DNA of 62,910 bases, filler included, from Bonamia ostreae (taxonomy: Eukaryota), in assembly GCA_040357525.1 (NCBI GenBank). It is 38 parts of 38 records of this genome, joined end to end, with 100 filler letters (N's around TTAATTAATTAA, not from the genome) between each part and the next. Parts side by side here need not be neighbours in the genome. Positions count along the whole stretch, not along the records: positions 1 to 1,572 come from JBDODL010001609.1; positions 1,673 to 3,244 come from JBDODL010001610.1; positions 3,345 to 4,914 come from JBDODL010001611.1; positions 5,015 to 6,582 come from JBDODL010001612.1; positions 6,683 to 8,249 come from JBDODL010001613.1; positions 8,350 to 9,915 come from JBDODL010001614.1; positions 10,016 to 11,580 come from JBDODL010001615.1; positions 11,681 to 13,245 come from JBDODL010001616.1; 30 more parts are not named here. The stretch is one strand, 5' to 3'. The position numbers and the translations under genes are program-made. The notes beneath the pieces were generated by a model. The model ran no database searches. It was not told where the DNA came from and saw nothing but the letters and a program-made list of their open reading frames with translations. Shown here in pieces: positions 1-62,910 of this stretch; the first letter of the stretch is position 1; the number at the start of each line of letters is the position of its first letter.

Positions 1-898
1 ATTATTGGTTTGGGCATTGAAGCAATCAGAGCACAAAGCTTTTCCCATGATTGTATGGTAAGTCTCTGTGAATTGTTTTTTGCAGTGGGAGCAGACGAAG
101 TGTTCTGGGTGGAAATATTTGTCCAGAGCGGTGACATATGTTCCAGATATTTTTTCGTTACAATCTGCACAGATTTTACTTTTTTTATTTCAATATTTAC
201 TGATTTTTCTATTTTAACTCATTTTATTTCAATTTTTAATGATTTTGCAATTTTTGCAGATTTTATTACAATTTTAAATGAATTTTTGCAATATTACTGA
301 TTTTTTATTGCAATTTTTACTGATTTTATTGCAATATTTACTGATATTTTATTGCAATATTTACTGATATTTTATTGCAATATTTACTGATTTTTTTGCA
401 ATTTTAACTTATTTTATTGCAATTTTAACTTATTTTATGCAATTTTTACTTTTTTTTTGCAATTTTTAAACTGATTTTATTAAAATCTGGGAAAACAAAA
501 ACTCATTTTCTTTGGAACAACTTTCGCAAAAAATGTTGTCGTTGTTATTTATATAAGGCAAGCCGATTAGAATTTTTTTACAGCCCGCGCACTCGAAGCA
601 TTTCGTGTGGTAATCTTTTTCATCGGAAGTGATATAATCCTCCTCGATCGTTTTATTGCAAAGATTGCAAGATTTTCCCGACTTGTTTTTTTCTACCGTC
701 TTCAACAAATAAAAATTATCTGATGGAGCCCATCCACATCGTCCTCCTTCTGAAACCACTTGATACGAATTTTCTTCTTGTTTATCAACTGTGTATATCT
801 TTCCAGCTTGCAACATAATCTCGTAGTCTTTCTGAGGCGAATAGTCCTTAATCGCAAAAACTCTGTTAAATGGACAACAAAAACTTGAATGGTTCCAT
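1..898 (-). CDS. Protist SH3 + LIM + LIM domain protein (3' partial)
   Basis: ATG at 898. Removing a 22-nt intron (863-884) and a 324-nt intron (179-502) gives MEPFKVFAIKDYSPQKDYEIML...GWAPSDNF (SH3), then CNLC..YHTKCFECAGC..FCESC and CADC..FHPEHFVCSHC..LCSDC (two LIM domains). Confidence 0.85.
181..465. repeat. Intronic minisatellite, about 20-23 nt unit (ttgcaatatttactgatatttta-like)
   Basis: Tandem degenerate copies fill the second intron of the SH3-LIM gene. Confidence 0.85.
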
Positions 899-1388
899 AA
901 TCCGGAATTTCAGTTTGTGTAATAAATTTATTAGTTTTTCTAATGTTCGCGGTTTGTCATATTATTGCTTTTTGTTATAAAAATTATAAAATTTGTATTT
1001 CGAGTTTAAAACAGAAAATGAAAACTATTTTTGAAAAAAATTATTTTTTGAAATCATTAAAAATAATTTTTTTTCTTCAAAAAATGAACGATGTGAGCCA
1101 CAATTATCTATGATTTCCCTTTAAAATAAAAACAAACAGAAATATAAAGACTGTCATATAAAAACATTTGAAACAGACTCGATTGACCAACAATTTTGAA
1201 CAACTCAAAAATAAAGGTCTATTAAAATTGCCCGTTGAAGGGACCATTTGAAAAATAAAAATTTTAAATTGTGGTTTAAAAATAGAAATCGCTTGTAAAA
1301 AAATGAAACCGTTAACAAGAAGCCAAAACAATCTCGCTTTGTCAATCAAATTAGAGGATGATTTAGTTTTCTTATCAAAATTAAAAGA

Positions 1389-1572
1389 ATTCTCAAAATT
1401 TGAGGAAAAACGATTTTATCTATTGTACAAATGGAGAAATCCTGATAAAGTTTAAAGGGACAGGAAGTCACAGTGAGAAAAAAGTTTTTATCTCAAGTGA
1501 TTTGTCTCGTCTTTGTTGGAAAGATATCAATGGATCAAATTTGAAATCTTTCAGTTTCAGTCATTGTGGATA
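1389..1572 (+). CDS. Exon of a protist protein with a PLC-type PH-like motif (partial)
   Basis: NGEILIKFKG...KKVFISSDLSRLCWK resembles the start of PLC-like PH domains. It is preceded by a 22-nt GTTTT..AAG intron-like segment. Confidence 0.35.
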
Positions 1573-1672
1573 NNNNNNNNNNNNNNNNNNNNNNNNNNNN
1601 NNNNNNNNNNNNNNNNTTAATTAATTAANNNNNNNNNNNNNNNNNNNNNNNNNNNNNNNNNNNNNNNNNNNN
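1573..1672. other. Artificial contig linker (first of 37): 44 N + TTAATTAATTAA + 44 N
   Basis: The same 100-nt spacer recurs about every 1.65 kb. TTAATTAATTAA gives stops in all six frames. Flanking contig lengths fall steadily (1572, 1572, 1570, 1568 ... about 1547), as in a length-sorted concatenation of unplaced contigs. Confidence 0.98.
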
Positions 1673-3344
1673 GCTATGGGAATTGCTGGTGGTGTAATCG
1701 TGCCGTTTATCCTGCTGGGCGTTGTTGGGGTTCTTCTGTTCAAGAGAAGCCGTCACAAACAAGGTTTACATAGAATCATGGTTTTGTAATTATTACTATC
1801 ATTTTATGTACATCTCATTTTAGATCATATAATCTGAATAGAGCTTGGTAAGTAATTTGCTAACAAACATTTATAAGTTACAATTTATGGACCTTGAAAT
1901 TAATTTTGTATTTATCATTACTTACATCCCTTCTCTATAATGCAATCATTTGATCTGAACAGGGATTGGTATATTGTAAGTACTTAATTTGCTAATAATC
2001 ATCTTCTGGTTTTTATATACCCATCTTTAGACAGGGCGTATTATGGTACACTTTACATCAGATTGCAGTTTTTTCTCTTCTATCTAAAAATTAGTCCCCT
2101 GATGAAATCCAAGACCCCTACCTAACTCATCTTAAAATAATGTCCGAAGATTGATTTTACCTATCCTTATATTTTACCTATTCAACATCTGATGTAAAAG
2201 TTGTTTTTCTTTATTAATGTATCAACGCTACTAATATACGAAACTGGTAGGGTTCTTTTTTGTTTTATTCTTTATTTATTTTTTAAATACATGACCCTTG
2301 TCCTCGTTCTTGTAAATGTAAAGAATGTACAACATGTAATCCTGTTACAAATTTTGTCCATAAAGTCACTGTAGACGAAACATTTAGGAAGTTAGAATAT
2401 TTTTGACATGTCTCGTTACTTTTTTAATTTTCATACAATTCTATTTTACTTTATTTCTAACAGATACCAGAAAGAGAGAAACATCAGTTGAGAGGGGTGA
2501 ATGTGAAGTCCTAGTACGTAAGGAAACAAAATATCTGGAGGAAAATGAGCAGAATGACAAACAGCAAAGAGGTGATACATTTGTGTGCGTTTTATATTTG
2601 ACGTTTACTTTCTACTGATTAGGATCTGCTTTTGTTTTCTAATTTGATTATATTCTCCTGATTAGAGCTGGAGCTGTCTGAAGGAAAATTTCCCAAAGTT
2701 CTACATTAGGCAGCTATTGAAACAGTACACCCAGAGAGACAAAGGCAATAGCTTGAAATTACCTGCCAATAAACTAGAAAAAACAAAAAACAAACAAAGC
2801 AAAATTCAATACCTATCAACAGTAACTGTTATAAGTGACCACATAATTAACAAACGTTTGTCAGCGTTGCACTCACTTATTCAAAATAAGCCTTAGACAA
2901 TGATATTCGAATTTAATAGACAATAGATACAAACTATCAACTTATAACAATTACTAGTACTGCTAAACCCCCCACAATTAAGTATGATTAATTGAAGTGA
3001 TTATAGATCAAAGAGCATCCGTAGAAGATAACGAATAATATCCTCTTCTGTCCAGGAATAAAGGTGACAACAAAAATTGTTGTCTGTCGTTGTTAACTTC
3101 AGAATTGCGATAATATTCTAGAACCACTAGGCCATTTCAAGATCAATTTTGCCTCGAAATACATATGGGTCATTTTGATTTTATAAATGAAGTGCTATAC
3201 CTATTTCTAGATAAAGGCAACTGATGATTAGCAATGACGTATGANNNNNNNNNNNNNNNNNNNNNNNNNNNNNNNNNNNNNNNNNNNNTTAATTAATTAA
3301 NNNNNNNNNNNNNNNNNNNNNNNNNNNNNNNNNNNNNNNNNNNN

Positions 3345-4538
3345 GTTGTCGTAGCCACGTTATAAAACGAATACGCGGCTTTAAGCTCTTTATGCTTCGA
3401 GTGATTTAACACCGTCGAAGATAAAATGTAGAAGCTCGCGATATCCGTCACATTCCCAAAACCGTCCTAAATTTTACCAGTCAAAAAATTTGCACAAAGC
3501 TAAAATCGCAAAACTTTTTTGACATAAGTCGAGACAACATTCTCTCTCGGAACAAAAAAGTGCGAAAACTCTTTTTCCGAAAAATAGAATCGCATTTTAA
3601 ATTTTTGCAGATAATCGTTCAGCAATTTCATTGCGCTTTCGGAATCTTCTTCTTTTAGCGGTTCCAACGAAATCGACGTTTTCGCCGGTAATCGGTGGAG
3701 CTTTTCAAACAACTCCATTTTCAATTTTGGGTTTTTGTACGCAAATTGTATTTCAACCAATTTTCGCGGATTTAGTTGTCGGTGGTAATAACTATTTTTT
3801 GCAAATTTTGGAAAACAGGTTTTTGCAAAATGGCTTCGTGACTTCGATTCCGGCGGTGTAAATTGCTTGCCAGATTCCCTTGAGATGGACCCGTCTTGTT
3901 ATCTCTTTTATGAGGACCGGAGCCAATCTTTTCGAACGCAATTTTTTGTGCACGCACAAAAAGTTTATTTCGACCATTTTCAGTTTTCTGGATTGAACGG
4001 AAAAACTTTTTCTCTGCGAAAGCGGTGACCGGTATTCCGGTGATTGAAGCCACCATTTCGCCAGACGGACTCGTTCTGACGCAGACGTGCAAGTCCTTTT
4101 CGAAGCCAGGCGGAGATAACGCCCATTTCAAAAAGTCCTTTTCGTATCGGAACCTAAACGAGTGATCTTCGTCTTCGATGTAGTTCTGTTGGAGCAGTTC
4201 GAAGAACTCGTTTATCTTTGCGATTTTGACCGAAAACCTCTTCTTCGTTCGAGATGTCGAACGTGTCCCAGTAATATTTGTTCGGGAGCTTGAACGGCTT
4301 CAGCGGAATGCTCTGAGAGTCGTTTTTGGCGTCGATCGGTCCGTTTTTGATTTTGGTTTCCTCTAAAATCAAAATCGCAACTTGATTTCGTTACCGGTTG
4401 CGTGTCCCAAAATCGGTGCTGCGGCGATTCCGCCTTTTTGGGAGAACCGCTGCGATTGGACAAATCCAAGTGCTTTATGTCGTCCGCTACTTTTTTCGTG
4501 TCGTTATTAGAGCTAACTGTTTTCGGAGAATTGCTCAT
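3345..4538 (-). CDS. NMT: Glycylpeptide N-myristoyltransferase (3' partial), 5 introns
   Basis: Motifs [68 protein letters not shown] and LKAAYSFYN join in frame after removing introns 4363-4381 (19 nt), 4216-4237 (22), 3988-4006 (19), 3792-3816 (25) and 3467-3514 (48), all GTT..AG. Confidence 0.97.
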
Positions 4539-4572
4539 TTATTATATTAACGTTTCGCAATATCTTTACTTA
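4539..4572. promoter_or_regulatory. 34-bp intergenic region between the divergent NMT and RPN11 start codons (putative bidirectional promoter/UTRs)
   Basis: NMT ATG at 4538 (minus) and RPN11 ATG at 4573 (plus). Confidence 0.7.
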
Positions 4573-4914
4573 ATGGACCTCAAAAACATACAGTCTCTTT
4601 TTCAAAACCAGGTTTGATCCTTTAACGCGTAAAGAGAGAAAACAAAGACAGCGTTCTGCCGGACTCAGTTTTCGACTAATTTTAATTACGAAAAACAATT
4701 TACAAAAAAGTCAGAAACGATTTATATCTCTCCGTTGGCGCTGATCAAAATGCTGAAACACAGCAGAGCGGGAATACCGATGGAAGTGATGGGGTTGATG
4801 CTGGGGGAGTTCGTGGATGACTACACTGTTGTCGTGCAAGATGTGTTCGCGATGCCTCAGAGCGGCACTAGTTTAAAATTTTAACTGAAAGCTGTCAGCG
4901 TCGAGTCCGTCGAC
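4573..4914 (+). CDS. RPN11: 26S proteasome lid deubiquitinase RPN11/PSMD14 (5' part; missed by the ORF track)
   Basis: Removing introns 4612-4634 (23 nt), 4668-4710 (43) and 4871-4891 (21) gives [85 protein letters not shown]. Confidence 0.96.
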
Positions 4915-5546
4915 NNNNNNNNNNNNNNNNNNNNNNNNNNNNNNNNNNNNNNNNNNNNTTAATTAATTAANNNNNNNNNNNNNNNNNNNNNNNNNNNNNN
5001 NNNNNNNNNNNNNNACAATGCCCCCCCCCAAACGTTCTTTTCATAAAACAATGGAAAAAACCCAGATAGGCAAACAAAGAAAAGAAATAGCATTAAATGT
5101 CCTCGATAGATAATGCAGGTAAGTCACAAAACCCATCTATTTTTAGTTGCACTACAGTTAGATTTTCTCTCTCGAATTCTTGCGAGTTCTGGTCCAAGAC
5201 CAGTCCGAGGTAGTGTCGTTGACGTAGTTAGATAGTTAGACCCAATGACCTTCGCTAAGTTACGATAACATTCGACAATTCCAATACGTTTGAATTTTCT
5301 CCTTTACACCAGTTAATATTTTCGTGAATAGCAAAGAACATTCTCACACATTTACATTGTCACCAAATTTTGTTCCAATTTTCAAGGACTTCCTGAACTA
5401 ATCGAAAATCAATTCAGAATTTGACTGATTCACTTTACTAGATATTAACCTGGGCCCACTGAGTTCTTTATCTCACGTTAACATAGACAGTATTTGCAAC
5501 ACACCTATATTGCTTGCAAGATTTTTTCCGATAAGGTTTCAAAATA

Positions 5547-5658
5547 TGAATGATAAAACCAAATGTTATACACACGATACGTGTTTATTACCAATACTAC
5601 ACACTTCTACTAAGTAATGAACACGTATCGTGTGCATAACATCTGGTTTTATCATTCA
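5547..5658. repeat. Near-perfect inverted repeat: 45-bp arms, 22-bp spacer (MITE or foldback remnant)
   Basis: Arm 5547-5591 is the reverse complement of arm 5614-5658 with 3 mismatches. Confidence 0.85.
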
Positions 5659-6840
5659 CAGTCATTTAACCTTTGTCCCGTACCGATGACCTAACAATTT
5701 CTAAAGATTGACTGTCAGCATGATTTTATTCATCCATTCTAAAGGATTGATTAAATCACTATATTGTTTATAATAACATATATACTTGAAATCACCTTAA
5801 GCATTCTGAGTTGTATCATCTGCATATATACATGTTAGCAGGTGATTGTTACATGTATTTGTTGGCGACCTGTACTTCAAGTTAAATGATGTTACATGCT
5901 GTTTCTGTATGTTAACACTAAAACGTGATATTTTCATTTCAATAATTTGTATGTATATGAATTAATTACTCCGTTGTTTCTCAGAAAAGGGAAACTTTTT
6001 CAAAGAAGAATCCGGGAAAGGGGACGGAATTCAAGGATCACCATAATGTGGATTTCCCCCATATCCAGCTAAAACTCATAGACTGGATAACGTATCATTA
6101 GTGCTGGGGGAGATTTGGGACCATCTCAGTGGTGCCGTTTGATCCTTGTTGTGCCAACGACTAGTTTTGGGTTTACTTCTAGGGCAGTTTCACCATGGAA
6201 AGATGATCGAATCAGGACTCCGGGGGGAACAGAAATTTTTCATAGTATGTAGCATTCTAGCATTCATTCTTGACAAGTGGGTACCCAGAGGTTTGTTACC
6301 ACCATAGTTATGTTGAGTTCTGTCAATAAATTGATTTAAGTTCAATTTATTTTCATTTTGCCTGTATTAGTTATGAAATGCATATTGTCATTCGATTGAA
6401 GTTATAAAATATCGTCAAAGAAATTTAAAAGTATTGAATACGATAACATTTACAATTAAAAGTTACCTAAATTATGTAAAGATGGTAAAGGTAGAAAAGA
6501 TGACATTTTTGTTATTATGTCGCATAATCTATGTCGCTATGCTGATAAGCATTAGATAGATGAATTTAGGAATATCTAATATNNNNNNNNNNNNNNNNNN
6601 NNNNNNNNNNNNNNNNNNNNNNNNNNTTAATTAATTAANNNNNNNNNNNNNNNNNNNNNNNNNNNNNNNNNNNNNNNNNNNNTCAACAGAGGATTATCAA
6701 GTAGGTGGTATTTATTCATTTATAAAATAATTCATGTACTTACTCTTTTTAGAAGTGTCATGATTCAATGCAATATAGAATACAAATCAAATTTTCAATT
6801 GTTTTTCGCTGTGTTTGTATTGTTGCTCATTTGTTTATAG

Positions 6841-7609
6841 CTTCGTTGTGACATAACCAAAGCCTTGGTTCTTGCCCTTGGTGTTTGTTACCATGCACGC
6901 CTCTCCGATCGGGAAAAGTTTAGAAATCACATCGTACAGTTTGTCAAGGACGAATTCATGTTAATAAAATCAGGGGAAACTTTCTTAGACATCTTAAGCA
7001 GGTAAGAAAGCAATAGCGTTCACATTATGAATATCCAAATACTTTGACTAGGAAATGGTTGATAAAAATGAACAAGCTACTCTCTTTAAGTTAGAATTAT
7101 AAATTGAATTCAACTTTGATATTTGCAGCTGTCAAGAATTCTTTATGAAAGGAGTTCCTCTTGGAAAAAACATCGCAAAAAACAAAGCGTTGGTCGAAAA
7201 TGTTTTCATGATGGCAATTTGCATAGAACTACAAATTCCTCTCTTTTTGGTGGGAAAGCCTGGAAGTTCAAAATCTTTGGCAAAAACGATTATATCGGAC
7301 GCAATGCAAGGAATGTCGTCACACACAAACGTTTACAAAACCTTGAAAAAAGTAAGTATTCCAGAAAGGATTTAAAATTTCAATGTTCTCTTTGTAAACA
7401 AAATATTAAGAAACACTGTCGGTGTTTTTAATTTCCAGGCTACTTTCGTGTCTTTCCAATGTAGTCACTTGTCTACACCCGAAGGTATTGTTAACACATT
7501 TGCTCAAGCATCAAACTACCAGAAGGACAGAGATTTAAGTAGATTTGTTTCAGTTGTTGTACTAGATGAAGTAGGACTTGCTGAGGACTCTCCGAGGATG
7601 CCCTTGAAG
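6841..7609 (+). CDS. RNF213: Host RNF213/mysterin-like AAA+ E3 ligase, three internal exons
   Basis: Exons 6841-7001, 7129-7351 and 7439-7609 with GTAAG/GTAAG/GTACA donors. Walker A LFLVGKPGSSKSL and Walker B VVVLDEVGLAEDSPRMPLK are characteristic of RNF213. Confidence 0.9.
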
Positions 7610-8372
7610 GTACAATATCGATTCGTCTAAAATATCTTATGCTTTTGGTGGATATTAATATACTAGCTTACGTGATTTATTTGAAATATATTCATAAAAC
7701 TGTGATTTCATGTCAGTGCATGGACGCCTATTAACACGAAAATTCACCAAGACATGGAATTGTGTTCGTATTCCGAAACGTACAAAACTAATGAATTTGA
7801 CTTTGATATAAAGTTAATAAATATATATTAAATGTAACTGGGTATTGATACGTTTTGATTTTCATGTCTCCAATTTTAGACTACATATTTTGCATGGATA
7901 CATATTTGGTATTGCCTATTGCTAATATATAATATGAGTTTTCAATAAGTTTTAGGTTAAGTGATTAGAAAGCAAATGATTTTTAAGAATAGTGACAACA
8001 GGGAATCTGATAATAGATTTCCCCTGCTCGCTTTACGCATAAGTAATAAACGAGCAGTTTATAAATTCAAGGAATGAGTGCATTTTTAGATTGTATCAAT
8101 ATATGATTGTATTGCATCTAGTATTATTAATGATTGTTTTGTAATATCACATATATAATGGATCTACAGTATGTGATCTTTAACTTGGCACCCCAAACTA
8201 ATTATCAAAAATGAGGTTTTCTAATGATACCATGATTACACCATATATANNNNNNNNNNNNNNNNNNNNNNNNNNNNNNNNNNNNNNNNNNNNTTAATTA
8301 ATTAANNNNNNNNNNNNNNNNNNNNNNNNNNNNNNNNNNNNNNNNNNNNATTTTAAAAATACTCAAATCGAT

Positions 8373-9823
8373 TTAACTTCGATCCACTTTTCCTGCTCTA
8401 ATAACCTCGTCAACGACCATTAAATTCTCTGCCATTACAGCTCCCAATTGAAGAAACTGTCTTTTCGCTCTGTAATTGTCCCAAACTCCCTCGTCTTCAG
8501 GCGACATCGGCTCTCCGTCTTCCAAATTCAATCCTACCGCAGATTCTAATTTTAATTGATAGAACTAGTTTTATTCGACGCCTCTTCCAGTTTTCTGACG
8601 CTTTCAATCATGTTCAATCCCGAATTCTGAGCCAAAACTTTTGGAATGGCCATTAAAGCTTCCGCAAACGCTTTTACGCCGTTTGCTGACTTTCCATATT
8701 TTTCGTTTTTGATTTCTGTTTCCAAATGTTTGGCACAAGCTAGTTCGAACGAACCAGCGCCGGGCACAACTTTTCTGTCTAAATTTTTTTATTTGTCAAA
8801 AATTTTAATTTAAAAGCAATTTTCGCTTTAAATTTTATTATTTTTGGTCAAAAATTTTAAATTGAAAAGCAATTTTTGTTCTAAATTTTATTATTTTTGG
8901 TCAAAAATTTTAATTAAAAAGCAATTTTCGCTTTAAATTTTATTATTTTTGGTCAAAAATTTTAAATTGAAAAGCAATTTTTGTTCTAAATTTTATTATT
9001 TTTTGTCAAAAATTTTAAATTGGAAAAGCAATTTTCGCTTTAAATTTTATTATTTTTTTTGTCAAAAATTTTCATTAAAAAGCCATTTTTGTTCTGAATT
9101 ATTATTTTTTGTCAAAATTTCGCTTAAAAATTTAGTCATTTAAACCATCAACCGCAAACTTGACCGCTCTCAATCCATCTCTTAAAGCTTCTTTCGCTTG
9201 CACCAAAATGTGTTTACTGTTCCCGCGTAGCAAAACAGTAACTGAACGAGGTTCTTTTGCGCCCTCGACAAAAGTAAATCTCTCTTCGCCCAAAATCTTT
9301 TCAGTGACTGAGCCAGCGAAGCCAAGACAATCTTCCGACAGATTTTCGGTGCTGTTCATCGCTTTTCCTCCAAATGCCAACGCTTTTTAAGTAAATATTT
9401 TTTGGCTAATTTTTAAAATCGCCATTTTTTCAAATTTCGATTTGGCTAAATTTTTAGTTTTTGAAAGAAAAACAGAGTCGTTCCATATTTCTTCTTTTCG
9501 CTCTTCGAAGAGCTACGATTCCATTTTTGTTCAAACGGTCTAATGAAAGCGGATCAATTCCTTTTTGGTTAATCACGACAAACGACGCTGTTTTGTCTTT
9601 CGAACACACTTTTTGCTAAATTTTTGCAAATTGTTGGAGTTGGAAACTTTTAAAGCGACGATGGTGTCGATGCGAGAATTGACTTTGTTGCGTTCTGCGG
9701 AAACCATTTCGGCGCGTTGATCTGCGTTGTTGAAATAGAATTGCGAATTCACCTCAGTTTTTTCGTATTCCAACGACACATTCAAAATCAACAAATAGCA
9801 ATTTTTGGATATTTTTGCCATTT
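8373..9823 (-). CDS. CCT6: T-complex protein 1 subunit zeta (5' partial)
   Basis: [57 protein letters not shown] and VDEVIRAG, with stop TAA at 8373-8375. Introns 9616-9647 (32 nt), 9383-9473 (91), 8779-9145 (367) and 8546-8565 (20), all GTT..AG. Confidence 0.97.
8790..9130. repeat. Intronic minisatellite, about 53-55 nt unit, about 6 copies
   Basis: Repeated gtcaaaaattttaaattgaaaagcaatttt(cgct/tgttc)taaattttattatttttt inside the 367-nt CCT6 intron. Confidence 0.9.
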
Positions 9824-12051
9824 CTAGTTTTTTTTTCAGATTTTGACAATCAAAAAAAAACAAAAATTGTCTTTTACAAAAAAAATCGAATGAACAAAAA
9901 AATTTGTCTTTTACANNNNNNNNNNNNNNNNNNNNNNNNNNNNNNNNNNNNNNNNNNNNTTAATTAATTAANNNNNNNNNNNNNNNNNNNNNNNNNNNNN
10001 NNNNNNNNNNNNNNNAAATATCTCCAAAAATTGACGATTTCACGATTAATAAATTTACAACATTTTTGTAAACATTTTGAATTGTCTATTCACGAATTTA
10101 TAAAATTCGTCTTTTACAAAAGAAAAATTTAGATTTAAAAATTGATGCCTCGCCATTTTTTAATTTTGAATAAAAATTAATCAAAAACGCCAAATTACAG
10201 TGTATGAAACAAATATAATAAAAAAAGCTTTTAGAAAAGACCAACAAGAAAATAGATCAACAAATAAATTCCCACCAAATAATAAAGCAGCGAAGCTAGA
10301 AGAACGATCCACGAAAGTACAAAAATCGACGAAGACAAAAACCTCCCACAAAAATCGCTAGGGCCCTCGTTTAAAAATATTTCGTAAAAGTTTGGTTCGA
10401 TAAAAACGTTTTCTAATTTATTCTCGTTTAAAACTGATTTTTTGTTTTGCATTTTCAGAATTGTAAAAGCTTATTTTGTTTAAAAAATGTCGATCTTAAA
10501 AATAAAAAATTTATGGCGCAACAAAAAATAGAAAAAATTACAAATTTATTAAAAAATCTAAAGCTTTTTCGATTTTGGCATTTTTAGAACGGTAAAAATT
10601 CCTGAAATCGGAAATTAAGCTTATAAAATCCTTTAAGTAAAATTTTTGTTCGTCTTTTTTTAAAAATCTGTAAGGAGACAGATGATTTTCGATAAAGTTC
10701 CCCAAAATAGCAAACTGAACTTTTTCATAATTTTTGCAGTTTTATAAAATTCAATTTTAAACAATTTTCATCAAAATTTGGTGCAAATATTTGAAATCTG
10801 CAAAATTTGAATTGTAATCGAACTCCATTCGGAAAAACAAAAAAATTGCGCCGACTGAAATTCTCCAATAAGAACTTTTATCATTTAATATTTTATTTTT
10901 CCGCTCTTCAAAATTGACATTTTTCCCTTTTTTCAACTTTGGTCCTAATGATCCACACGAATACAACTTTTTAGTGACATGTTTAAAAAGCTAAAACACA
11001 AAAATATTTTTAACCGTTTGGTCAAAATGTTCAGAATCGGAGGACATTTGGTCATCATCGGAAATTTTAATAACAAATTTCAAGTACTCTTTCAATGTGT
11101 TGATGCATTTAAGTCTACAAGTTCTTTCGTGTACTTTTACTAATTTTGATATTGTGGTCGCAGCATTTTCTTGTAAAGACGGAATTTCTGTAATAGAAAT
11201 TTTATAAAATTCAAATTTTATAATTTTAAAAAACCGTCAATTAAATTAATGAAGAGAAAAAATGACAAATCCTCGGCGATTTTGTTCGAGATATTTTCTT
11301 TTTTAAAATCCAACATATTTTCGAAGGCTAAATTTTAACAAAATTCTTTAAAACCAACGCAAGCTGCACTTCTTACAGTCCAATTGTCGTCTTTTATCAA
11401 AACAAAAAGAATCGAAATCAATTTTGAAAATTGTTTTTCAAGATCATTTTTTTCTATTTTTCTTAACAATTCAGTGATTGAAAAGCACGAAGCCTTTTTT
11501 AATATGTTTAATGCCCATATTCTGTCAATTTAAACAAAAAAAAGACGATATTTTTAATTAAATAAAACGAAAATATTTTTNNNNNNNNNNNNNNNNNNNN
11601 NNNNNNNNNNNNNNNNNNNNNNNNTTAATTAATTAANNNNNNNNNNNNNNNNNNNNNNNNNNNNNNNNNNNNNNNNNNNNTCTTTGTTTTTTCGTGTTTT
11701 TGACTTTTATTTGGTTTTTTGTTGAATTTATTTGTAAAATTTTATCGATTTTTCTATTTATTGTCAATTTTTCTATTTATTGTCAAATTTTCTATTTTTC
11801 CACCAAATTAATATTTACGATTGAAGATTTTGAGATGAAAGACGAAAAATTTATAAATCCCTGCAAAATAAAGCAAATTCCTTTTATGCGAAAGTACAAA
11901 CGCGGGAGAGCCTACAAAATTGCTCTGAAGAGAATAAGCGAACTTGAAGATCATTCTCAATATCAATAAAATGTTTTTAATTGCAAATTTGTTGAACTTG
12001 ATCTCGTCCATTAATTAAAATTTGAAATCAAATTGGAAAAATGACAAAAAT

Positions 12052-12391
12052 TTAATTAAAGAATATTTCATCGACAATTTTATCAGTCCAAAAAATCTTC
12101 GAAGATTTATCTGATCTTTTTCTCAAAGTAGTCGTTCTATAAAGTCTCAAATCTTGGTCTAGATCGCCTTTTTGTAGCAGATCTCTAAAAAGTCTCAAAT
12201 CTCTTTGGAAAAAGGGATTTTTGAATACTGTCTCCAACTTTTTTGTCTCGTTGTCTACATTTGGTAACAAAGAAACCAAAATACTTTTTTCTGTTTCAGT
12301 AAAATTGGACAGACAAAAAGAATTTAGATTTGACAAATCGTATTTTAATAATTTGGAGTTTCGAGAACAAATGTTTCGAACTAATGTTGCT
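12052..12391 (-). CDS. Exon encoding a DEUBAD/ASXH-like domain (ASXL/NFRKB family) of a protist protein
   Basis: NSKLLKYDLSNLN...TETEKSILVSLLPNVD...FKNPFFQRDLRLFRDLLQKGDLD matches the DEUBAD pattern (S.L...DL, E...L..LLP.vD, N.fF...f...L..G.fD). Confidence 0.6.
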
Positions 12392-12407
12392 CTTTTTTGG
12401 AGTTAAT

Positions 12408-41118: not shown

Positions 41119-41191
41119 AACAACAAACAGAAATTTGGACAAAACAGTTATTATATTTAATAAACTAAAATATATTTAGTCGTCGAGAAAA

Positions 41192-51369: not shown

Positions 51370-54300
51370 NNNNNNNNNNNNNNNNNNNNNNNNNNNNNNN
51401 NNNNNNNNNNNNNTTAATTAATTAANNNNNNNNNNNNNNNNNNNNNNNNNNNNNNNNNNNNNNNNNNNNTTCAAATATTTTAGACTATTTTGTTCTGCGG
51501 TTATTATTTTTATATAAATATTACAACTTTTATAATTTTCCGTTATTGGTTACTACAAATATTTTATAATTTTCTTGTCTTCCTCTAATTAATGGCTCTC
51601 TCAAAAAACTTGAATAATTTCTATAGTTAATGTATAAAGTAGATTTACTCTCCCAAAAATGGTGTGAAAACCTGAGGGTTAACATAGAAGATAGATTTTG
51701 GTCTCTTTGTTAATAGCTTTATATCAGGCGAGTTAAAAGTTTTGTGTCTGTTATTATAACGTGTTGAATTTTTAAGTTTATTTATTCCTAAAATCATTGT
51801 ATTTGTATTTTTGTCTTTTTGGAAGAAATCGGCGACGAATTATTGACTAGATTCAACAGCGATAAAACCTCACTTTTTAACAAATACCTTCTAAAATTCC
51901 AAATAAATTGAACGTGGCAGTAACGAATCAGAAAAATTGCAGTAACGAATATATTCTAAAAACTTTCCTAACGAATCCTAAAAATCTCAATTCTTTTGAT
52001 GTAACTTTCCGACGAAATATTAATAATATGTCGACGCGTCCTGGTTTGCCACGTAATTGAAAAATTTTATTTGAAACATATCGTTTAGTTTGTGAATAGA
52101 AATAAAAAAATAATTTTATTACGATTTCCAAAGAAAAAACAATTTACAAATATTCACATTAATTTTTCTGCCGGAAACATTTTTGCCCAAAATTAACTAA
52201 AAAAATTAAAGCTTTTTAGAAAATTAGCTTTATTATTTAATATTTTTTCATATACAAAATAATCTAAACTAGAAAAAAATCAGAATGTCAGATATGTCAA
52301 ATTGGAACGAAACAGCAAACAACAAAAAATCCAAAAACAACGAAGAACAACTAAAACAGCTCTTTCAAAAGTTTTCACAAAAACTAAATTTCCAATTTAG
52401 ACAATTTGAAAATAAATTGTTTATTCCTTTTTTGTAAAAAGAGCCTTTAATCAGTTCACTTCAGGTTGCGGCAGACTTTTATGCGAAAATAATTATTGCG
52501 CTTCAAATCCAAAATTTGGTCTTTTGTCTCAAAGCGACGCGATCAAAATGGCTCTCATCCAAATAAGAAATCGCAGCAGCGATTTCTACATCTGCGATAT
52601 CATTGAATCGATTAAAGCTCAAGAAATTAGTCAAAATGCCAAATTTGGTGATTTCTCGCAATTCGTCGAACGTTCCTTCAGTTCCGTGGAAATTCTGGAG
52701 ATAAGCTTTCTAACTGTTTCAAATTATCTTTTAAAAAATTGTTTTGGCAAAATTTGAAAATTCGCCCTTTTAACATGAAAACACAAAAGGACAATGGCGC
52801 GAATTGCAAAGAAATTTTATCAAACAAAAAAAGTGCGATAGATTATAAAGGTCTAGAAATCGCGTACGAAATTATTCTGAAAAACGTTTTTATTTTAAAT
52901 TTAGTCTAAAGCAAAATTATCACTCAAAAAATCTATTTCGGTAAGCAGTGAAAAGTTGTTTGAAAAATGCAAAAAAATCAAATTTTACTCCATTTTGCGC
53001 GTTCTGATAATTATTTTAANNNNNNNNNNNNNNNNNNNNNNNNNNNNNNNNNNNNNNNNNNNNTTAATTAATTAANNNNNNNNNNNNNNNNNNNNNNNNN
53101 NNNNNNNNNNNNNNNNNNNCCAAACAAGAATTACTGGTATTGTTTATTATTATTATTATTTGCATTATTATTATCAAATACTGAATTTAGGAATATTGAG
53201 GTAATTAAGTTAAATGTTGTCTGCTGTGTTTCACGTCATTTGTTAGGCCAATTTTTGTTGCGACCTCGTTTGTTCTTTCATTTTTTAAATATATTTTTAT
53301 GATATTAATGTAAATACTTACTTTTCGTGTTCTTCATTTTTTTCATTAAAGCAATTTGGCGAATGAATCTGATAAACGATTATCTTATAAGAATATGTGT
53401 ATATTCTACCTCTTTTAGATATCATTTGCACCCTATATTGTTTCCTCAGATCCAAACATTAACCTAAGATGGCTTAGAAAACTCAGAAAAGGCTTCGGAC
53501 TATCTGCCATCTAAAATCATTAGAAAACATAAGTTAAAAGAAATAGAACGTTCCAGTCTCATTATTTTAAGGGAGTGTTTCGTTTTATGCATTCGTTGTC
53601 TAGCAAAGACTTCCAATTCCATACTCTTCCCTTCCCAGGATATTCCTGTTTTGCACATACTTTACTTTCCACAGGAAAATCGTACTGCAGGTAGGATTTT
53701 CGTTCTTGTTAAAATGTACTATTATGTGTCTGCTATTAAAAAGGTTTCAAGGGCATATACATTATGTCTTTGTCAAAAGTGTGCTCTACAGTGTATTTTT
53801 GAACCAATTTTGCATAATGAATGATCGATGTTTAAAAATACGACATTTTAAATCAACATACCTTTTATCTATCCTTGTTAAGGGTGGAAAATTAACAGGA
53901 AACTTTGGGGGATACCCGTGAAATTGTCAATAAGCATTGGTCGGCAAAACACAAAACACTGTTTAGTTACAGATTGAATTGAATTTACTTTCAACACATT
54001 GATAATCATGATATGCCAAGCATGAAGTGAAATACAAATATAGAATACCTAACCAATCCATTTGCTGCGTACGCGGAAGTTCTCCGAGATAAGCTCTAGC
54101 GATTTGAAAACAGTATTTAGCAGGCACAAGTAGAAAAACCGAAACATTTTAGATCACAGTGATTCATTCATTTTATTTTATGTCATATTATTCTCAGAAA
54201 GATCATATTGACAGACTACGCTTCAATCCTGCAATTATTCATATGATTTTTCTTTCAATTTTAGGTTTCAAATGATCAAATTGATCTACAATTTCAAATG

Positions 54301-54879
54301 AACATACGAATCATGATATTTGTGTCTCTTTTACGTGATTGTTTGTATATTTGTCCATATTGTGTTTTACGTCTTCTTCGCGACTATTCACTACTTTAGA
54401 GATACCATTGTTTGTTAGAATATCAAAGCTATATTGATTCTCATTCATGATACAACATTTTAACTATAATTAAGCAATGTCGTCAATTCATTGTATTGTC
54501 AAATTCGTGATGAGTGATAGGTCTTGTCCCCGTTGTTACCTTTAACAGATATAATGGAATACAGTACTACCCTCAAACTCCTTTTATGTCAAAAACAGTT
54601 TTGCAAAGAGAAAACATTAACGGTTTACAGTTTGTCACTCTTTAGTCTGATGAGCCTACAAATTTGTAANNNNNNNNNNNNNNNNNNNNNNNNNNNNNNN
54701 NNNNNNNNNNNNNTTAATTAATTAANNNNNNNNNNNNNNNNNNNNNNNNNNNNNNNNNNNNNNNNNNNNATACAACTGATGACGTCTCGATATGAGAGAA
54801 ACAATTCCCGACTAGACGTAAAACAAACAACCAACTAATCTTTTTCAAACATGAAATGATAATTGTCACATTTAATTTA

Positions 54880-55060: not shown

Positions 55061-56418
55061 ATCACTTGTCGTATATATTGTAGTATGATATGCTTAAAGT
55101 TTCTCCTTCATAGCAGTTGACTTTTAAAAATAGGGGTTTGGTAGAATATTTACTTACAGTCAAGCATTACATCATCGTGTTATTCTTCTTCAAGACCCGA
55201 TAGGAGTTAATGCACTTTGGCCGCTGTTTCTTTCAAAGACCAGAAGTTTTTGTATTACATGTAAAATGGTATCATAGTAACTTGATATTCATAATTGTAC
55301 AAGTCAACCATGACGCCCCCCCCCCCATAATTTGGACGAGAACTTTGTGCTTAGCATATCTGTACAATTTTTGCAGGCCGTGATGCAACAGAATCGCCGC
55401 TGAAATATGTGTAGCTATACCACTTAACACGTTTATATGGAATCTGAAAGCTGACATGAATTCTTTACTATTCAGATATTTCATTTCATCAGCTGTCTTT
55501 CAGATAGCCAGTTTTATACCACCGTTATATGTACGTGATTGTTATACCTGAATCATTTTCTAGACTGACTATACCGGTGCATATAGTGAATTAGAAACAT
55601 GAAATCTCGTTTTAAACCGTCATGCATTGCTCAAAATTACAATACAGCCATTGTATATTCCAAACATTTTAGACGAAAATGTGAAGCGAAGGAGTCTCTT
55701 TATTTGCTTGAACATGTATACAAGTATTTGCAGGAAACATGTCAAGAATCGTTAACAAAGGCGAATAAATCATTTACCAATTTCATATTGATAGAAGTCA
55801 CTGTGCTGAGAATATGAAATTAAATCATTCACTTAATGAAAATTGAAAATGCATAAACAGGGGAATGCATATGCCATGCTCGCCATAAATCGCATTGAAT
55901 TCGGACAACTGTATACCTAACCTATTACAACAGATCGGATATGTGCACTTTTCGAAAACATTCCCTTTTTATTTTAACAAATCCACAATCCAAATTGACA
56001 ACTTCTATTTGTGTCCCTACAGTAAAACATTGTCACCCCATGTACAGACTGCGACACAACTGTGATTTTATCATACAATAAACTGAAAAAAAAGCTCAAT
56101 TTTCAGATTTTTGGAATATTTGAGGTCTTACCGTTATCGAAGATAGATAGTTCTGAAAACAGCAAAACTCTTGTTGTGGCTTATCTGAAGTGTTAAGGAA
56201 TTATGCAGTACTTAAACCTTATATAGTACATGTACCTTGTCATTATCACTGTGAAACGCGTATGCTCTTTTATTTTGCCACACTATAAGACCATTCTTAT
56301 AACCATACTTTTATTTCCNNNNNNNNNNNNNNNNNNNNNNNNNNNNNNNNNNNNNNNNNNNNTTAATTAATTAANNNNNNNNNNNNNNNNNNNNNNNNNN
56401 NNNNNNNNNNNNNNNNNN

Positions 56419-57834
56419 TGTCTCTCCGACGAGGTGCCGTCTTGAGAGATTCTAGTAAAGACCTGACCTGACAAATAATTGACAATCGCCAATTATTGCC
56501 ATAAAAAGTTGTAAACTTTGAAAATTAGCCGAACCTTGCGATTCCCAGTTGTCTCGAGAATTTTTCTGCTGCTTCTTTTCCTTTTAAGTCGTTGTCTGTC
56601 CACAGATATATTTTTTCGAATTGGTCCAATAATGGCAGCAGATCAACCGGAAGAGCATTGCATCCGACCGGAAGAGAGATCGCCGTCATTTTTGTTGCCT
56701 AAATATCAACAAACATTACCTGGTAGACGGCCATCGCATCATATTCGCCTTCGGTAATAACAATCGATTTGTCTTTTTCTTTAATTGTATTTAATCCAAA
56801 AAATCCCCACGATCCCCCACTCGGATATATTGTCTGATCGGATTTTTCTTCAAGTCCTCTTAACTTTTCGATTTTAGCAAAATTTTGATGTCTCAAAAAA
56901 TCATGAAAAAATTGTAAAATTGAAAAAAATGAGGAAAAAAATTGTGAAAAGAACTAAAATTTTAAAATTGCAAAAAATGAGGAAAAAAATTGTGAAAAGA
57001 ACTAAAATTTTAAAATTGCAAAAAAATTGAAAAAATGCGAAAAGAACTAAATTGCAAAATTTGAGAATCGGAAAAACTTTGATTCTCTGTAAAACTTTAG
57101 TCGAGTAATTTGTGTTCGTTACGTACCAAGGGAAAACGATGGCAGGTTTTCTCTTAAAACCGTCATCCGTGTAAAAAGACCAATGTATGACCCCGGAATT
57201 AAACTTCTTTAGAGTTTCTTTAGTGATTCCTCTTTTCTCGAGAATTTGTTCGAAAAAGTTCTTGTTCTTCTCACTCAAACGGGCTTTTTCCAAAATTTGC
57301 AGCATTTTCGGTCGCAATTCTTCGGATTTGCTCTTCATCGCAAATTTCTTCTTTTTCTCGTCCTAAATGCAAATCGGTATGGATTAAAAACTTCGAGCAA
57401 ATTTCTGGTTATTTTTGTGTACGTCGGTTCGCGATCCATCATCGCCCTGAATTTCATGTATCCGCCTTTGTTGTTGCACCGGTGGCAATAGAACCCCCCG
57501 CTTGACTTCCATATAATCAATTTGTACAAATTGGAATTCTTGTCGTTGTGGGGAGGGCAGGTCGGGCAGTATTTGAGCTTGTAGAACAATGGCGTTTCCT
57601 TAACATTTGAACAAAAACTCTGAAATCCTTCTTTTTTTGAAGACACAGATCCACTATCGTTTTCGAGAAATCCTCGAATTGCTCTTCATCGTTTAAATCA
57701 GCTTTTATTTCATCCTCTAAAAAAATCTGCTCAGTGAAATATCTAATTTTTAAAGCTTTTAATTTAGTTTTGCGAGATTTTCTGTAAATTCTTGCACTTC
57801 TTATGCTACACAATGTTTTAATTCCGCGTAGCAT
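56419..57834 (-). CDS. TWNK: Twinkle-type mitochondrial primase-helicase, N-terminal primase part
   Basis: Arg-rich presequence MLRGIKTLCSIRSARIYRK, zinc-binding CPTC...FYCHRC, KRGIT, and TOPRIM IVITEGEYDAMAV...IYLWTDND. Introns of 20, 29, about 214 (with repeats) and 21 nt (56699-56719). Confidence 0.88.
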
Positions 57835-59715: not shown

Positions 59716-60110
59716 AAATTTGGCATTTCGAGCGAACGGTTTTAAATTTTTCGACAACAAAACCATAATTTCTCTAAACTCCAAAACAAGCGATGCCAAA
59801 ATCTCAGTTTCTGCCATTTTCAACAACGTTTTCTTACTAAAATTTTGTTCTTCCAAATCAAAATCGGAAGGGATTTTGAAACCCATTTTCCCAAAAAACA
59901 ATTTGGACAATTTTTCGTCGCTTTCCAAAATTTTGTTTATTTCTTTTAAGCTTTTTTCGCCGATTATTTTCGCAAACGATTTTTTTATTTCTTTTAAACG
60001 GCAATGAGCTATTTTTAGAACAGAAAGACATTTTTTGTAGTCGATTTCAATTCCGTTCTTTTCCAATTCTGATAAAATTTGACTTGTTTTCATTTCGATT
60101 TCTTGGAATG
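59716..60110 (-). CDS. Family A DNA polymerase (theta/nu-like) thumb-region exon; the gene extends upstream
   Basis: EIEMKTSQILSELEKNGIEID...LSKLFFGKMGF...SKKTLLKM...LVLEFREIMVLLS matches the PolA pattern E..L..mE..Gi.vD / iLe.R...Kl.s. Confidence 0.65.
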
Positions 60111-61754
60111 TTCTTAATTTTTAAAATTGACTATTTTAACAATTTTTAATTTCTGTCCTGTTTTAATTTTTAAAATTGAATGTTATTAATTTTCAGCAGC
60201 TTTTTGCTGACGATGTTTTAAATTTAATAAAATTTTGCTCTTTAAAAATGCAAAAGTACTCTAAAAGTGAATGCTTTTGTAAGAGGGCGTCAGTGTAGCG
60301 ACAGAGTTGCCACGTCATCCAACTCTCTCTTCCGTTATTTTGCTCTACGTAAGAAAATTGGGACACTCCGCCAATTATCTTTTTAGTCTCGCTTAGAACA
60401 TTTTTTGATCGATTTATCGAGTGGAGATAAAGATAATGTAAATCTTCCAATTTTAATTTGCCTTGTTCTTTTCCTGTCGATAAAATCCTTTTTCCGATTT
60501 TTATATTTTGCCAATTAACATTTTATTTTGAAAATTTCACATTAATAATTATTTATTTTTGGAAATTTGACATTAAAAATTTGACATTAATAATTATTAA
60601 TGATTATTAATAAATAAATAAAGAAAACCAATGGGCGACCAAAGGATCAGAAAGTTTTTCAATTTTAATAAAATTGGATAAAATTTTGATTTTGTTTTTA
60701 CAATCAAAAATAATCAATTCTTTATTTCCCAAGACTAAATTTTAAAGAAATTACATTTTTTAATCAATTCTGTTTTGTCAAAATTTGTCAATTTTCCAAA
60801 ATTTAAAATGAAAGCTTTTCTGGAAGAAAAGCAAATCGATATTCCTTCAATTTCTTTCTCTTGATCTACTCGTTGCCAAAAATTCAGCGCTATTTTCTAA
60901 AATTTTGGCATTAAAATTTAACAAAAACATCCATTTTGTCGACTTGAGATAGAAAAGATTGATAAATCTTTTCATTTTCGCAGACATCGATCAAATGAGC
61001 TGAAAAGCTCATTGGACTTTTCGCATTTCTGGGAACTTTTGGGGACAGGTTGATAACTGTGTTGGGATTTCTAATCCTTTTTTCCGGAGATAATTTGCTT
61101 TTGCTGTTTAAATTTTAATGTAAACATTCCGCAGATCGAATTTTTAATTCTTCTTTTTAAATAAAGTTGTGCGGTCGCAACTATTTTTTGCCCGAGTTTT
61201 TTGGATATTGTTTTTGGCGCCTTTTTTTGTATTTTCGATAATTTTTTTTCGATATTTTTGGCTNNNNNNNNNNNNNNNNNNNNNNNNNNNNNNNNNNNNN
61301 NNNNNNNTTAATTAATTAANNNNNNNNNNNNNNNNNNNNNNNNNNNNNNNNNNNNNNNNNNNNTACCGTAGCAGGATTTTGTCAACCTCGTAATGAGTTG
61401 TGCATTCATAGGAATTAATGGACAATAAAACATATCAAAACAATTTTCTAAACCGGGGATACTACCCAAATGTGAATATGGGTGACATGCGAGCTCAGTT
61501 CCCACTCTGTTTACATTGATGTAGATATTGATCAAAGGCAACTGTGGATGTCTATATTTTCTAGATCGTGGGTCTTACCGTTTGTTTATTTAACCCCCAA
61601 TATCTTGCCTCTCTTTAAAACGATTATTAGTGTTAGATAATGTAGATCGTTTACAAACATGACAATATTCGTGGTATGATTTCATACGATTCTTCACTGA
61701 ATAGAAATTATGACTATTGTGCACTTCCTCCTACAGTACGTGGTCATAAGTGAG

Positions 61755-61855
61755 GCATCATTTCATTTGTTTACCTCTGATGTGTCCAGTGGTCCGTATT
61801 TCTCTGAATTCTGAATACGATTTATGAGATTATTCACAGTTATTTTCACTTTGCC
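61755..61855 (+). repeat. Degenerate copy of the host dispersed repeat
   Basis: acctctgatgtgtccagtggtccgtatt...tatgagattattcacagttattttcactt. Confidence 0.5.
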
Positions 61856-62910
61856 ATTGTTCCATGAGTTCACATTACTGTTGGTGTCGTTTGTGGTGCA
61901 AACCACGGTGAACTTTCCTTATATAAGTTTTGTTGAGTTAAAGCAGCATCTTTCTGTGGATATAATTGGAATGTACTCATGATTATGTCGGAAAGTAGTG
62001 ACCTAGGAAGTAGATATTCTGTGACTAAAACTGTGTCTCACTGTTCTTTATATTCACCTTTCTTCAAGCTAAAGTGAAGGTTGGAATACTATACAAGTAT
62101 AAATTTGTCTTTATTGATTCTTGATCTGTTGGTAGCCCGTGTACTAGAATATGTATTTCAATTGGTGTATCGTCGGAAGAAGTTAGGGTCATGGGGATTT
62201 TCTATCACAGTCCTGTCACGAGTAGCGTAATACATTGTAAACAATATATATGCATGGAAAATGTATCTTCTTCAAAGTACTATAAATAAGACGAATATGA
62301 CAAACAATCAATTTTTGAAACTGAGAACTGAGAATCATTTCAGTTGGAAGGATGGTCATTTTCACTGGTTTTCTTGTTATATTCAGTGACCCATGGCCAT
62401 ATTTAGGAGTTAATGGTAAAATGCGTATGTAATTCACCACGCTTGNNNNNNNNNNTTAGTCTAACAGAAACACTCACATATGATTTGACATATCAATTGC
62501 TAAATCACAATTCAATGACCATTGGCGTTACAGAATAGGGAGTTGGATTGCGACGTTACCTTAGATACAGGCATACTACGCTGAGGTTCCAATGGGAAAT
62601 TATTGTTTTTAGAAACAGATAGGGAAATTTTGACATTGTGATCCAATATTTAGCAGAACATCTTAGCACGTTATGGTAGTTTCTTAATTTCCTATTTAAG
62701 AAAATTGATCTCAGAGATGTCGTTTTCTACGAGTTTATGATTAGATTGCAGTTCAAATTGTCAGTGTTTTCACTGACTTTGAAGATTTGAAAAATCATAT
62801 TTGTCGTTTGTTGATTATAGTCCTTGCAAATACTTTAAAACGAATGATTTGAAATTGACACAATAATAGTAATTGGATATTAAGAAATAATGTTTGCCAA
62901 TTGCAAAACA

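Follow-up and report, generated by a model that had tools for sequence, protein, structure and literature searches.

A slice of the public Bonamia ostreae assembly holds compact parasite contigs together with animal-like, most likely oyster, contigs

We analyzed a stretch of 62,910 nucleotides (hereafter, the window) from the public genome assembly of Bonamia ostreae (GCA_040357525.1), an intracellular haplosporidian parasite (Ascetosporea, Rhizaria) of oyster blood cells. We are confident that this stretch is a slice, sorted by length, of the fragmented assembly, in which 20 contigs belong to the parasite and 18 are animal-like, most likely from oyster. What it contains is the genome of a known parasite, already in print, with more host DNA left in it than had been stated, and not a hidden, unknown genome. 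An initial annotation of the same DNA had proposed a "hidden second genome", in which a compact protist was mixed with bivalve contigs. The mixture is real, but nothing is hidden, since the parasite is the labeled organism and the host-like DNA is its unlabeled passenger.

The 38 contigs, which we number in order of occurrence, are strictly ordered by length from 1572 down to 1547 bp, and are separated by 37 identical spacers (N44-TTAATTAATTAA-N44). Contig 38, which is host-like, has an internal gap of 10 N at positions 62446-62455, and therefore at least some of the records are scaffolds rather than contigs. Twenty contigs (31.2 kb) form a gene-dense class, and 18 contigs (28.0 kb) form a gene-poor class. 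Each of the 20 positions given earlier as a gene-dense start coincides with the start of a contig; the gene-poor class had been put at about 17 members, and stands with 18. The host-like share (18 of 38 contigs, or 47%) was sampled near 1.55 kb only, and does not extend to the assembly as a whole, since most of the longer contigs are probably from the parasite.

Two compositional classes of contig

The observed/expected ratio (o/e) of CpG ranges from 1.02 to 1.83 (median 1.50) in the dense class and from 0.41 to 1.12 (median 0.76) in the poor class. For TpA, the ranges are 0.42-0.68 (median 0.53) and 0.74-0.94, respectively, without overlap, and for each of the two ratios the difference has a Mann-Whitney p of ~2e-7. 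Dense contigs are thus over-represented in CpG and strongly under-represented in TpA, at a G + C content (GC) that is nearly equal in the two classes (31.0% vs. 33.5%). Dinucleotide bias parts Bonamia-like from host-like DNA cleanly, whereas GC cannot.

The first axis of an unsupervised principal component analysis of tetranucleotides accounts for 40% of the variance, and k-means clustering on this analysis recovered 19 of the 20 dense contigs and all 18 poor ones. Ward clustering placed contigs 3 and 15 in the poor set. Leave-one-out order-3 Markov log-likelihood ratios (LLRs, in bits/kb) lie between +33 and +130 for 19 dense contigs, and between -52 and -121 for all 18 poor contigs. The value for contig 15 (23323-24882) is -0.2, an ambiguity that stems from the almost wholly coding nature of this contig; we grouped it with the dense class on account of a 19-nt intron predicted at 23927-23945, the donor of which reads GTTTTT. 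Scoring by codon usage did not separate the classes.

We searched 165 open reading frames (ORFs) of at least 70 amino acids (aa), plus 146 poor-class ORFs of 45-69 aa, against Pfam. Matches over the curated cut-off were found in 12 of the 20 dense contigs, and in none of the 18 poor contigs. The families concerned are LIM, JAB, NMT, Cpn60_TCP1, ASXH, BTB_2, CBS, NFACT_N, POLR3C_WHD, DEAD, SNAPC3, AZUL, and DRY_EERY. The two contig classes seen in the initial annotation were therefore borne out by the CpG and TpA ratios, the Markov ratios, the Pfam counts, and the tetranucleotide binning that it had itself put forward as a check. Its description of the poor class as holding "animal genes and repeats" did not hold, in that we found one firm animal exon (RNF213, see below) and only six of 28 tandem-repeat rows there, three of those six in contig 31; the other 22 rows are in the dense class.

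Identity of the gene-dense contigs

Contig 6 (8350-9915) encodes the C-terminal part of the chaperonin subunit CCT6 (TCP-1 zeta). One exon of 84 aa is 99% identical to "hypothetical protein MHBO_003201, partial [Bonamia ostreae]" (MES1921672.1, 313 aa), and the whole of this 313-aa protein threads letter for letter on the minus strand (coding sequence 9824..8376) via four GT-AG introns. The record behind this protein is 1566 bp long, as is contig 6. Direct identity to a record named B. ostreae was obtained for this one dense contig out of 20, and the other 19 are tied to it by composition and by intron signature. A quick maximum-likelihood tree of CCT6 was built from 41 of the 47 matches, leaving out four that are shorter than 400 aa and the last two. 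The Bonamia sequence was placed outside a clade that holds every named animal and has a support of 100 in the Shimodaira-Hasegawa-like approximate likelihood ratio test (SH-aLRT), and the tree supports no closer placement; a phylogeny of CCT6 was one of those that the initial annotation had suggested as a check.

Two further contigs bear on the identity of the class. The NEMF exon on contig 17 has its best relative in EukProt, a protein from the foraminiferan Nonionella stella (Rhizaria) with 50% identical residues, and its further relatives are from a chytrid, a heterolobosean, and cryptophytes; no mollusc is among the matches that carry a name. Contig 3 (3345-4914) is present whole and free of differences over its 1570 bases in two sequencing runs from two studies (X1 and X2), at word depths of 5.27 and 9.39. 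Runs X4 and X5 showed no cover of this contig, which is no proof of its absence there. We conclude that the dense class is the nuclear genome of Bonamia ostreae, which is compact, gene-dense, ~31% GC, and rich in CpG.

All four introns of the deposited CCT6 model start with GTT, and they lie on the minus strand at 9647-9616 (32 nt), 9473-9383 (91 nt), 9145-8779 (367 nt), and 8565-8546 (20 nt). Likewise, the N-myristoyltransferase gene of contig 3 comprises consecutive exons that are colinear on Pfam and in different frames, with GT..AG gaps of 19-32 nt when read by eye. For the class as a whole, we used a gene finder based upon dynamic programming, with codon log-odds, introns restricted to GT..AG, no splice-site model, and a milder penalty for introns of up to 60 nt. 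It rebuilds the deposited CCT6 model exactly. In predicted genes of at least 60 aa on the dense contigs, it returned 45 introns with a median of 32 nt, a range of 16-367 nt, and a mode near 19-25 nt; 27 are no longer than 40 nt, and 34 no longer than 60 nt. These lengths are to be read with the caveat that the length penalty favors short introns, and that the deposited model backs the four CCT6 introns only.

Donors start with GTT in 34 of the 45 predictions and with GTTT in 25. Among all GTN trinucleotides of the dense contigs, the fraction of GTT is 0.464, and the excess has a binomial p of 3e-5 against a baseline of 0.45, which is slightly under the actual value. Acceptor ends are A-rich, with AAAG, TTAG, and ACAG common. 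When applied to the poor contigs, the same gene finder gave 17 presumably spurious introns, two of which start with GTT. The dense class is thus characterized by GT-AG introns that mostly measure 19-40 nt, open with GTT(T), and are A-rich toward the acceptor, in agreement with the tiny GTT introns that had been noted at the outset. No description of this signature was found in the literature, in a search that did not extend to the PDF supplements of PMC11069148. The text of that paper and its four text supplements give neither intron lengths nor a donor consensus, and term the introns "canonical".

Some of the long introns of the Bonamia-like contigs, as well as other stretches, are occupied by AT-rich minisatellites with units of 21-53 bp. 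Such arrays lie at 8779-9145 on contig 6 (where a 53-bp minisatellite makes up almost the whole of the 367-nt CCT6 intron), 174-481 on contig 1, 12406-12697 on contig 8, 29969-30113 on contig 19, and 56908-57051 on contig 35.

Three dense contigs bear on the genes named in the initial annotation. Contig 16 (24983-26542) carries the C-terminal part of a phosphomevalonate kinase (PMK) at 24984-25572 on the plus strand. Two consecutive exons are colinear on TIGR01219, at positions 245-300 (E 2.1e-06) and 337-448 (E 4.6e-27) of 456, and the score is under the full-length cut-off of that model because only the C-terminal part is on the contig. An exon of the gene had no significant relative in a PDB sequence search. 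The profile matches confirm a PMK of the ERG8 type (GHMP family) on contig 16. The PMK enzyme of animals differs from this type.

An exon of contig 28 (44863-46414; exon 45075-45383, minus strand) matches positions 12-100 of the 170 in Peptidase_M76 at 24.8 bits, where the cut-off is 25.2, and its translation has the HExxH motif; it is probably ATP23. The minus strand of contig 35 (56419-57967) carries a phage-T7-type primase gene, with a zinc-finger exon (57338-57685), a middle exon (56904-57362), and a TOPRIM exon (56702-56953). The three consecutive exons are colinear on phrog_47 at 55-108, 127-190, and 220-249. The gene also matches the primase/helicase family phrog_239 (E 5.7e-08), its CHC2 finger matches Zn_ribbon_DnaG (E 7e-4), and the TOPRIM motif is present in the translation; two of the exons gave nothing significant in a PDB sequence search. 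These matches support a Twinkle-like gene of which the contig holds the primase half only, since the helicase half would lie beyond the contig end. The initial annotation, which had drawn on all three genes, was thus right about the ERG8-type PMK, while its ATP23 is probable and its Twinkle confined to the primase half. Genes of these types are in keeping with the partial mitochondrial genome that has been recovered from B. ostreae; such a genome is described as absent in mikrocytids and paramyxids (PMC11069148).

The mikrocytids offer a close comparison. Like the dense class, they are ascetosporean parasites of marine invertebrates (Mikrocytos mackini in oysters, Paramikrocytos canceri in crabs) with low GC, reduced genomes, and very short introns. 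In the published account, mikrocytid introns number 224 in 179 genes and have a fixed length of 16-17 nt, and Mikrocytos has a mitosome (PMC10245619). In contrast to these few introns of fixed length, the dense class has several introns per gene, of 16-367 nt. In contrast to the lack of a mitochondrial genome in mikrocytids, it has a gene for a mitochondrial primase-helicase, seen in its primase half, and probably one for an ATP synthase assembly protease. Membership of the Mikrocytida was considered and rejected, on the basis of the intron range and the T7/Twinkle-type primase, and the initial annotation was correct in disfavoring Mikrocytos.

We also weighed whether the dense contigs could come from a dicyemid, an orthonectid-like mesozoan, or another animal with a compact genome, or from some other eukaryote with tiny introns, such as a ciliate, a microsporidian, or a mikrocytid. 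Introns of 19-32 nt would suit such an origin. So would the AZUL, ASXH, SNAPC3, and LIM + SH3 domains, which are common in animals, and the animal sequences (60-63% identity) that follow the Bonamia protein among the named matches of the 84-aa CCT6 exon. We nevertheless find it extremely unlikely. The protein of contig 6 matches a Bonamia-named protein exactly, the PMK is of the ERG8 type, and CCT6 falls outside the animal clade, and on these three grounds a dicyemid or mesozoan origin was rejected. The exons also read in the standard genetic code, and mikrocytid introns are fixed in length (PMC10245619), unlike those here.

Origin of the gene-poor contigs

One indication of an animal source for the poor class is an exon on contig 5 (6683-8249) that encodes part of an RNF213-like AAA protein (7103-7372, plus strand). 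It matches vertebrate RNF213 over 81 residues with an E of 8.1e-29 in a PDB sequence search; an Atlas query with the same exon returned generic AAA/dynein clusters only. RNF213 is not known outside animals. Seventeen of the 18 poor contigs have a CpG o/e of less than 1, and CpG below expectation is typical of methylated invertebrate genomes. Taken together, the evidence supports a poor class that is animal-like, gene-poor, and CpG-depleted.

Poor-class sequences also occur in other public data. An ORF on contig 22 has five variants among Logan contigs that differ at 0-4 of 98 residues, and an ORF on contig 30 has two that differ at 1-3 of 89 residues (both in clusters at 90% identity); two such Logan variants gave nothing significant in a PDB sequence search. 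The two loci are thus found again in other public runs, with polymorphism between them, unlike the invariant parasite contig 3. An ORF on contig 9 (13346-14909; ORF 14236-14418, plus strand) is on four Logan contigs.

We considered the possibility that there is one genome with two compartments, the poor contigs being non-coding or repeat-rich DNA of Bonamia itself. Ascetosporean genomes have been claimed in print to hold abundant non-coding sequence, and the B. ostreae assembly is only 32.1% coding (PMC11069148, Table 1). Moreover, poor-class ORFs are deposited beside Bonamia proteins, and the sole relative of contig 31 is a protein named Bonamia. However, the TpA ranges of the two classes are disjoint and their CpG ranges barely overlap, the contig 5 exon matches vertebrate RNF213, the dense-type intron signature is missing in the poor class (GTT in 2 of 17 predictions vs. 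34 of 45), and poor-class loci are polymorphic across public assemblies where the parasite contig is not. A single genome with two compartments is therefore very unlikely.

The host of B. ostreae is Ostrea edulis (PMC11069148), and the poor class is most likely host oyster DNA that was co-assembled from infected tissue and survived decontamination, with the species inferred. The pairing of an oyster with an ascetosporean, among which the initial annotation had named Bonamia first, was accordingly right for Bonamia by way of MES1921672.1, and for oyster it has indirect backing from RNF213, CpG depletion, and run labels. The poor class could also be animal DNA from another bivalve, or carry-over from the laboratory or the sequencing lane, and libraries of different organisms did share sequencing lanes (PMC11069148). 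Against this stands weak evidence from four runs labeled "oyster metagenome", which contain 0.09-0.21 of the sampled words of window positions 1-9915, a share that is not resolved to the poor contigs; one of these runs (X5) is without contig 3. Sampled-word shares of 0.08-0.25 in other runs were not used as evidence of habitat. On balance, an animal source other than the oyster host seems very unlikely.

Some of the host-like sequence has already entered protein databases. Exact ATG-to-stop ORFs were found in NCBI and UniRef for four poor contigs, namely contig 5 (7145-7372), contig 20 (31618-33174; ORF 32673-32891, plus strand), contig 22 (34932-36487; ORF 35497-35790, plus strand), and contig 30 (48167-49718; ORF 49183-49449, minus strand), and for dense contig 17 (27685-27882, plus strand). 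Their source records measure 1567, 1557, 1556, 1552, and 1559 bp, respectively, each equal to the corresponding contig here. In such look-ups, six of the 10 poor-class ORFs and six of the seven dense-class ORFs were unmatched, which means only that ORF boundaries differ. By the shared deposit, we infer that the poor-class entries carry the Bonamia name, and fragments that are likely host circulate in NCBI and UniRef under the organism name of the deposit.

The published description of the draft (Hiltunen Thoren et al., BMC Biol 2024, PMC11069148) reports 12.24 Mb in 9705 scaffolds with an N50 of 1417 bp, a GC of 33.3%, a coding content of 32.1%, and a mean of 2 introns per mRNA. Parasite data were extracted from metagenomes of infected host tissue using GC, coverage, and similarity filters. 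For the cleaning, O. edulis was represented by a transcriptome and an ABySS assembly of 219 Mb, FCS-GX screening is cited, and the NCBI contamination screen flagged 4.7% of genes, whose scaffolds were omitted from the submission (PMC11069148). Residual host contamination is acknowledged for the B. ostreae assembly, and a mixture of Bonamia and oyster is thus already known in kind and admitted in print (PMC11069148). The window resembles that draft in its strong fragmentation (parts of ~1.55 kb), its GC, the presence of introns, the organism name on the matching protein, the retained mitochondrial genome, and the acknowledged host remnant. It differs in that, after the flagged genes had been removed, 18 of the 38 contigs in the slice are still host-like, at least four of them with deposited ORFs. 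We found no report in the literature of a host-like share as large as this in a deposited slice.

How such contigs might have survived can be pictured as follows. DNA from infected tissue would have been assembled at low parasite read depth, and host contigs of ~1.5 kb would have had the same GC as the parasite, a similar depth, and no counterpart in an incomplete host reference. O. edulis has a GC of 35.41% (PMC9679249). Near-equal GC, low parasite depth, and an incomplete host reference may therefore have let short host contigs pass the GC, coverage, and similarity filters. The annotation pipeline would then have called ORFs on these contigs, and the records would have spread to NCBI and UniRef. 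Host carry-over is a general problem in unculturable intracellular parasites, and the window shares with it the co-assembly from infected tissue and the host ORFs under the parasite's name. In contrast to the general case, the partners here are nearly equal in GC and are parted by CpG and TpA bias.

Contig 31 (49819-51369) deserves separate mention. It has a frame of 516 codons that is open over the whole contig, a GC of 41.7%, an A/C-rich strand, an LLR of -66.6, and 117-bp repeats that encode Ser/Pro-rich units. A search of 1.84 billion representatives returned a sole relative, a protein of 119 aa that itself bears the name B. ostreae (E 3.6e-07, 44% over 80 aa), and the frame has no relatives among proteins of near its length. 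The long open frame may, in part, be an effect of the A/C-rich strand.

Several points weigh against the division into a B. ostreae genome and oyster DNA. The name Bonamia on MES1921672.1 is that of the depositor, and if the protein stems from the same assembly it is no independent taxonomic proof. The Bonamia branch in the CCT6 tree is very long (1.08, compared with a median of 0.091), and the tree holds no named rhizarian. Read cover was obtained for contig 3 alone. Only one poor contig out of 18 has a firm animal gene. Contig 31 fits neither class well, given its host-like k-mers, CpG o/e of 1.12, and Bonamia-named relative. Finally, no Rfam family, rRNA, or tRNA was detected when the entire window was scanned.

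Further features and meaning for the Bonamia genome

Most of the remaining dense contigs carry recognizable gene fragments. Contig 1 (1-1572; CpG o/e 1.02, LLR +47.4) has an exon of an SH3 + LIM protein at 469-909 on the minus strand (LIM, 40.4 bits). Contig 3 holds N-myristoyltransferase at 3500-4538 on the minus strand (Pfam NMT and NMT_C) and the N-terminus of RPN11/JAB at 4633-4881 on the plus strand (Pfam JAB). The starts of these two genes lie head to head within 4477-4640, ~100 bp or less apart, a spacing that reflects tight packing of the parasite genes. Contig 8 (11681-13245; LLR +115.0) has an ASXH/DEUBAD exon at 12055-12402 on the minus strand (ASXH, 37.6 bits), contig 13 (20001-21562; LLR +69.8) a KCTD-like BTB_2 gene on the plus strand (34.5 bits), and contig 24 (38244-39799; LLR +77.0) the start of a DEAD-box helicase at 39458-39739 on the plus strand (DEAD, 43.6 bits). 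Downstream of PMK, contig 16 has a CBS-domain gene on the same strand (26091-26540; 32.4 bits). The NEMF/NFACT_N exon of contig 17 (26643-28201) is at 27018-27479 on the minus strand (NFACT_N, 71.1 bits).

The minus strands of contigs 23 (36588-38143) and 25 (39900-41454) encode the RNA polymerase III subunit RPC82/POLR3C (POLR3C_WHD 73.7 bits, RNA_pol_Rpc82 26.7 bits) and SNAPC3 (79 bits), respectively. An exon for an AZUL zinc-binding domain is found at 52416-52754 on the plus strand of contig 32 (51470-53019; AZUL 35 bits, LLR +61.5), and a gene model for an SFSWAP-like protein (DRY_EERY, 36.7 bits) with seven predicted introns on the minus strand of contig 36 (58068-59615). Contig 19 (29960-31517; CpG o/e 1.21, LLR +32.8) is AT-rich, with a 36/70-bp minisatellite. 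No named domain was found on contigs 7 (10016-11580; CpG o/e 1.79, LLR +96.1), 27 (43209-44762; 1.61, +52.1), and 37 (59716-61263; 1.48, +111.4), and no firm domain on contig 14 (21663-23222; 1.51, +95.1).

From its ORF translations, contig 15 encodes an apparent Cys-rich membrane protein (23479-24880, plus strand). Its N-terminus is hydrophobic, as is a single stretch close to the C-terminus; the protein also has a basic tail and several Cys-rich modules, with a weak Sushi-like match (E 0.0011). The product appears to be a candidate surface protein of the parasite.

For the poor class, contig 2 (1673-3244; CpG o/e 0.56, LLR -79.2) is without a Pfam match, and contig 34 (54770-56318; LLR -85.5) has a weak zf-UBP_var exon at 55603-55752 on the plus strand (20.6 bits, cut-off 22.6). 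CpG o/e and LLR are 0.43 and -72.3 for contig 9, 0.98 and -52.4 for contig 20, and 0.73 and -90.9 for contig 38 (61364-62910); the LLR of contig 22 is -81.1, and the CpG o/e of contig 30 is 0.41. The other members, with the same two values in brackets, are contigs 4 (5015-6582; 0.78, -94.1), 10 (15010-16573; 0.59, -96.7), 11 (16674-18237; 0.82, -54.4), 12 (18338-19900; 0.73, -61.2), 18 (28302-29859; 0.83, -95.9), 21 (33275-34831; 0.75, -78.8), 26 (41555-43108; 0.69, -120.6), 29 (46515-48066; 0.48, -71.5), and 33 (53120-54669; 0.84, -69.5).

Bonamia ostreae is a notifiable oyster pathogen and, to our knowledge, its draft is the only haplosporidian reference genome. If nearly half of the contigs near the N50 are host, then estimates of genome size, coding fraction, and gene counts would be affected, as would inferences of gene-family gain and loss. 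Host ORFs under the parasite's name could, if confirmed as such, mislead diagnostics, taxonomic classifiers, and screens for horizontal transfer. The CpG and TpA ratios offer a practical means to separate parasite from host contigs.

We tentatively propose, with less than even confidence, that a large part of the short contigs in the public deposit, about half in this slice, is oyster DNA; that the real genome of the parasite is smaller, denser, and less non-coding than published; that its introns are among the shortest known; and that their miniaturization predates the split between haplosporidians and mikrocytids. If true, intron length in B. ostreae would have its mode at 19-25 nt, the donor (GTTT) would be unusual, the acceptor end would be A-rich instead of pyrimidine-rich, and the shrinking of introns would have begun before haplosporidians and mikrocytids diverged. 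The intron signature is a small but real lead on the evolution of splicing in Rhizaria.

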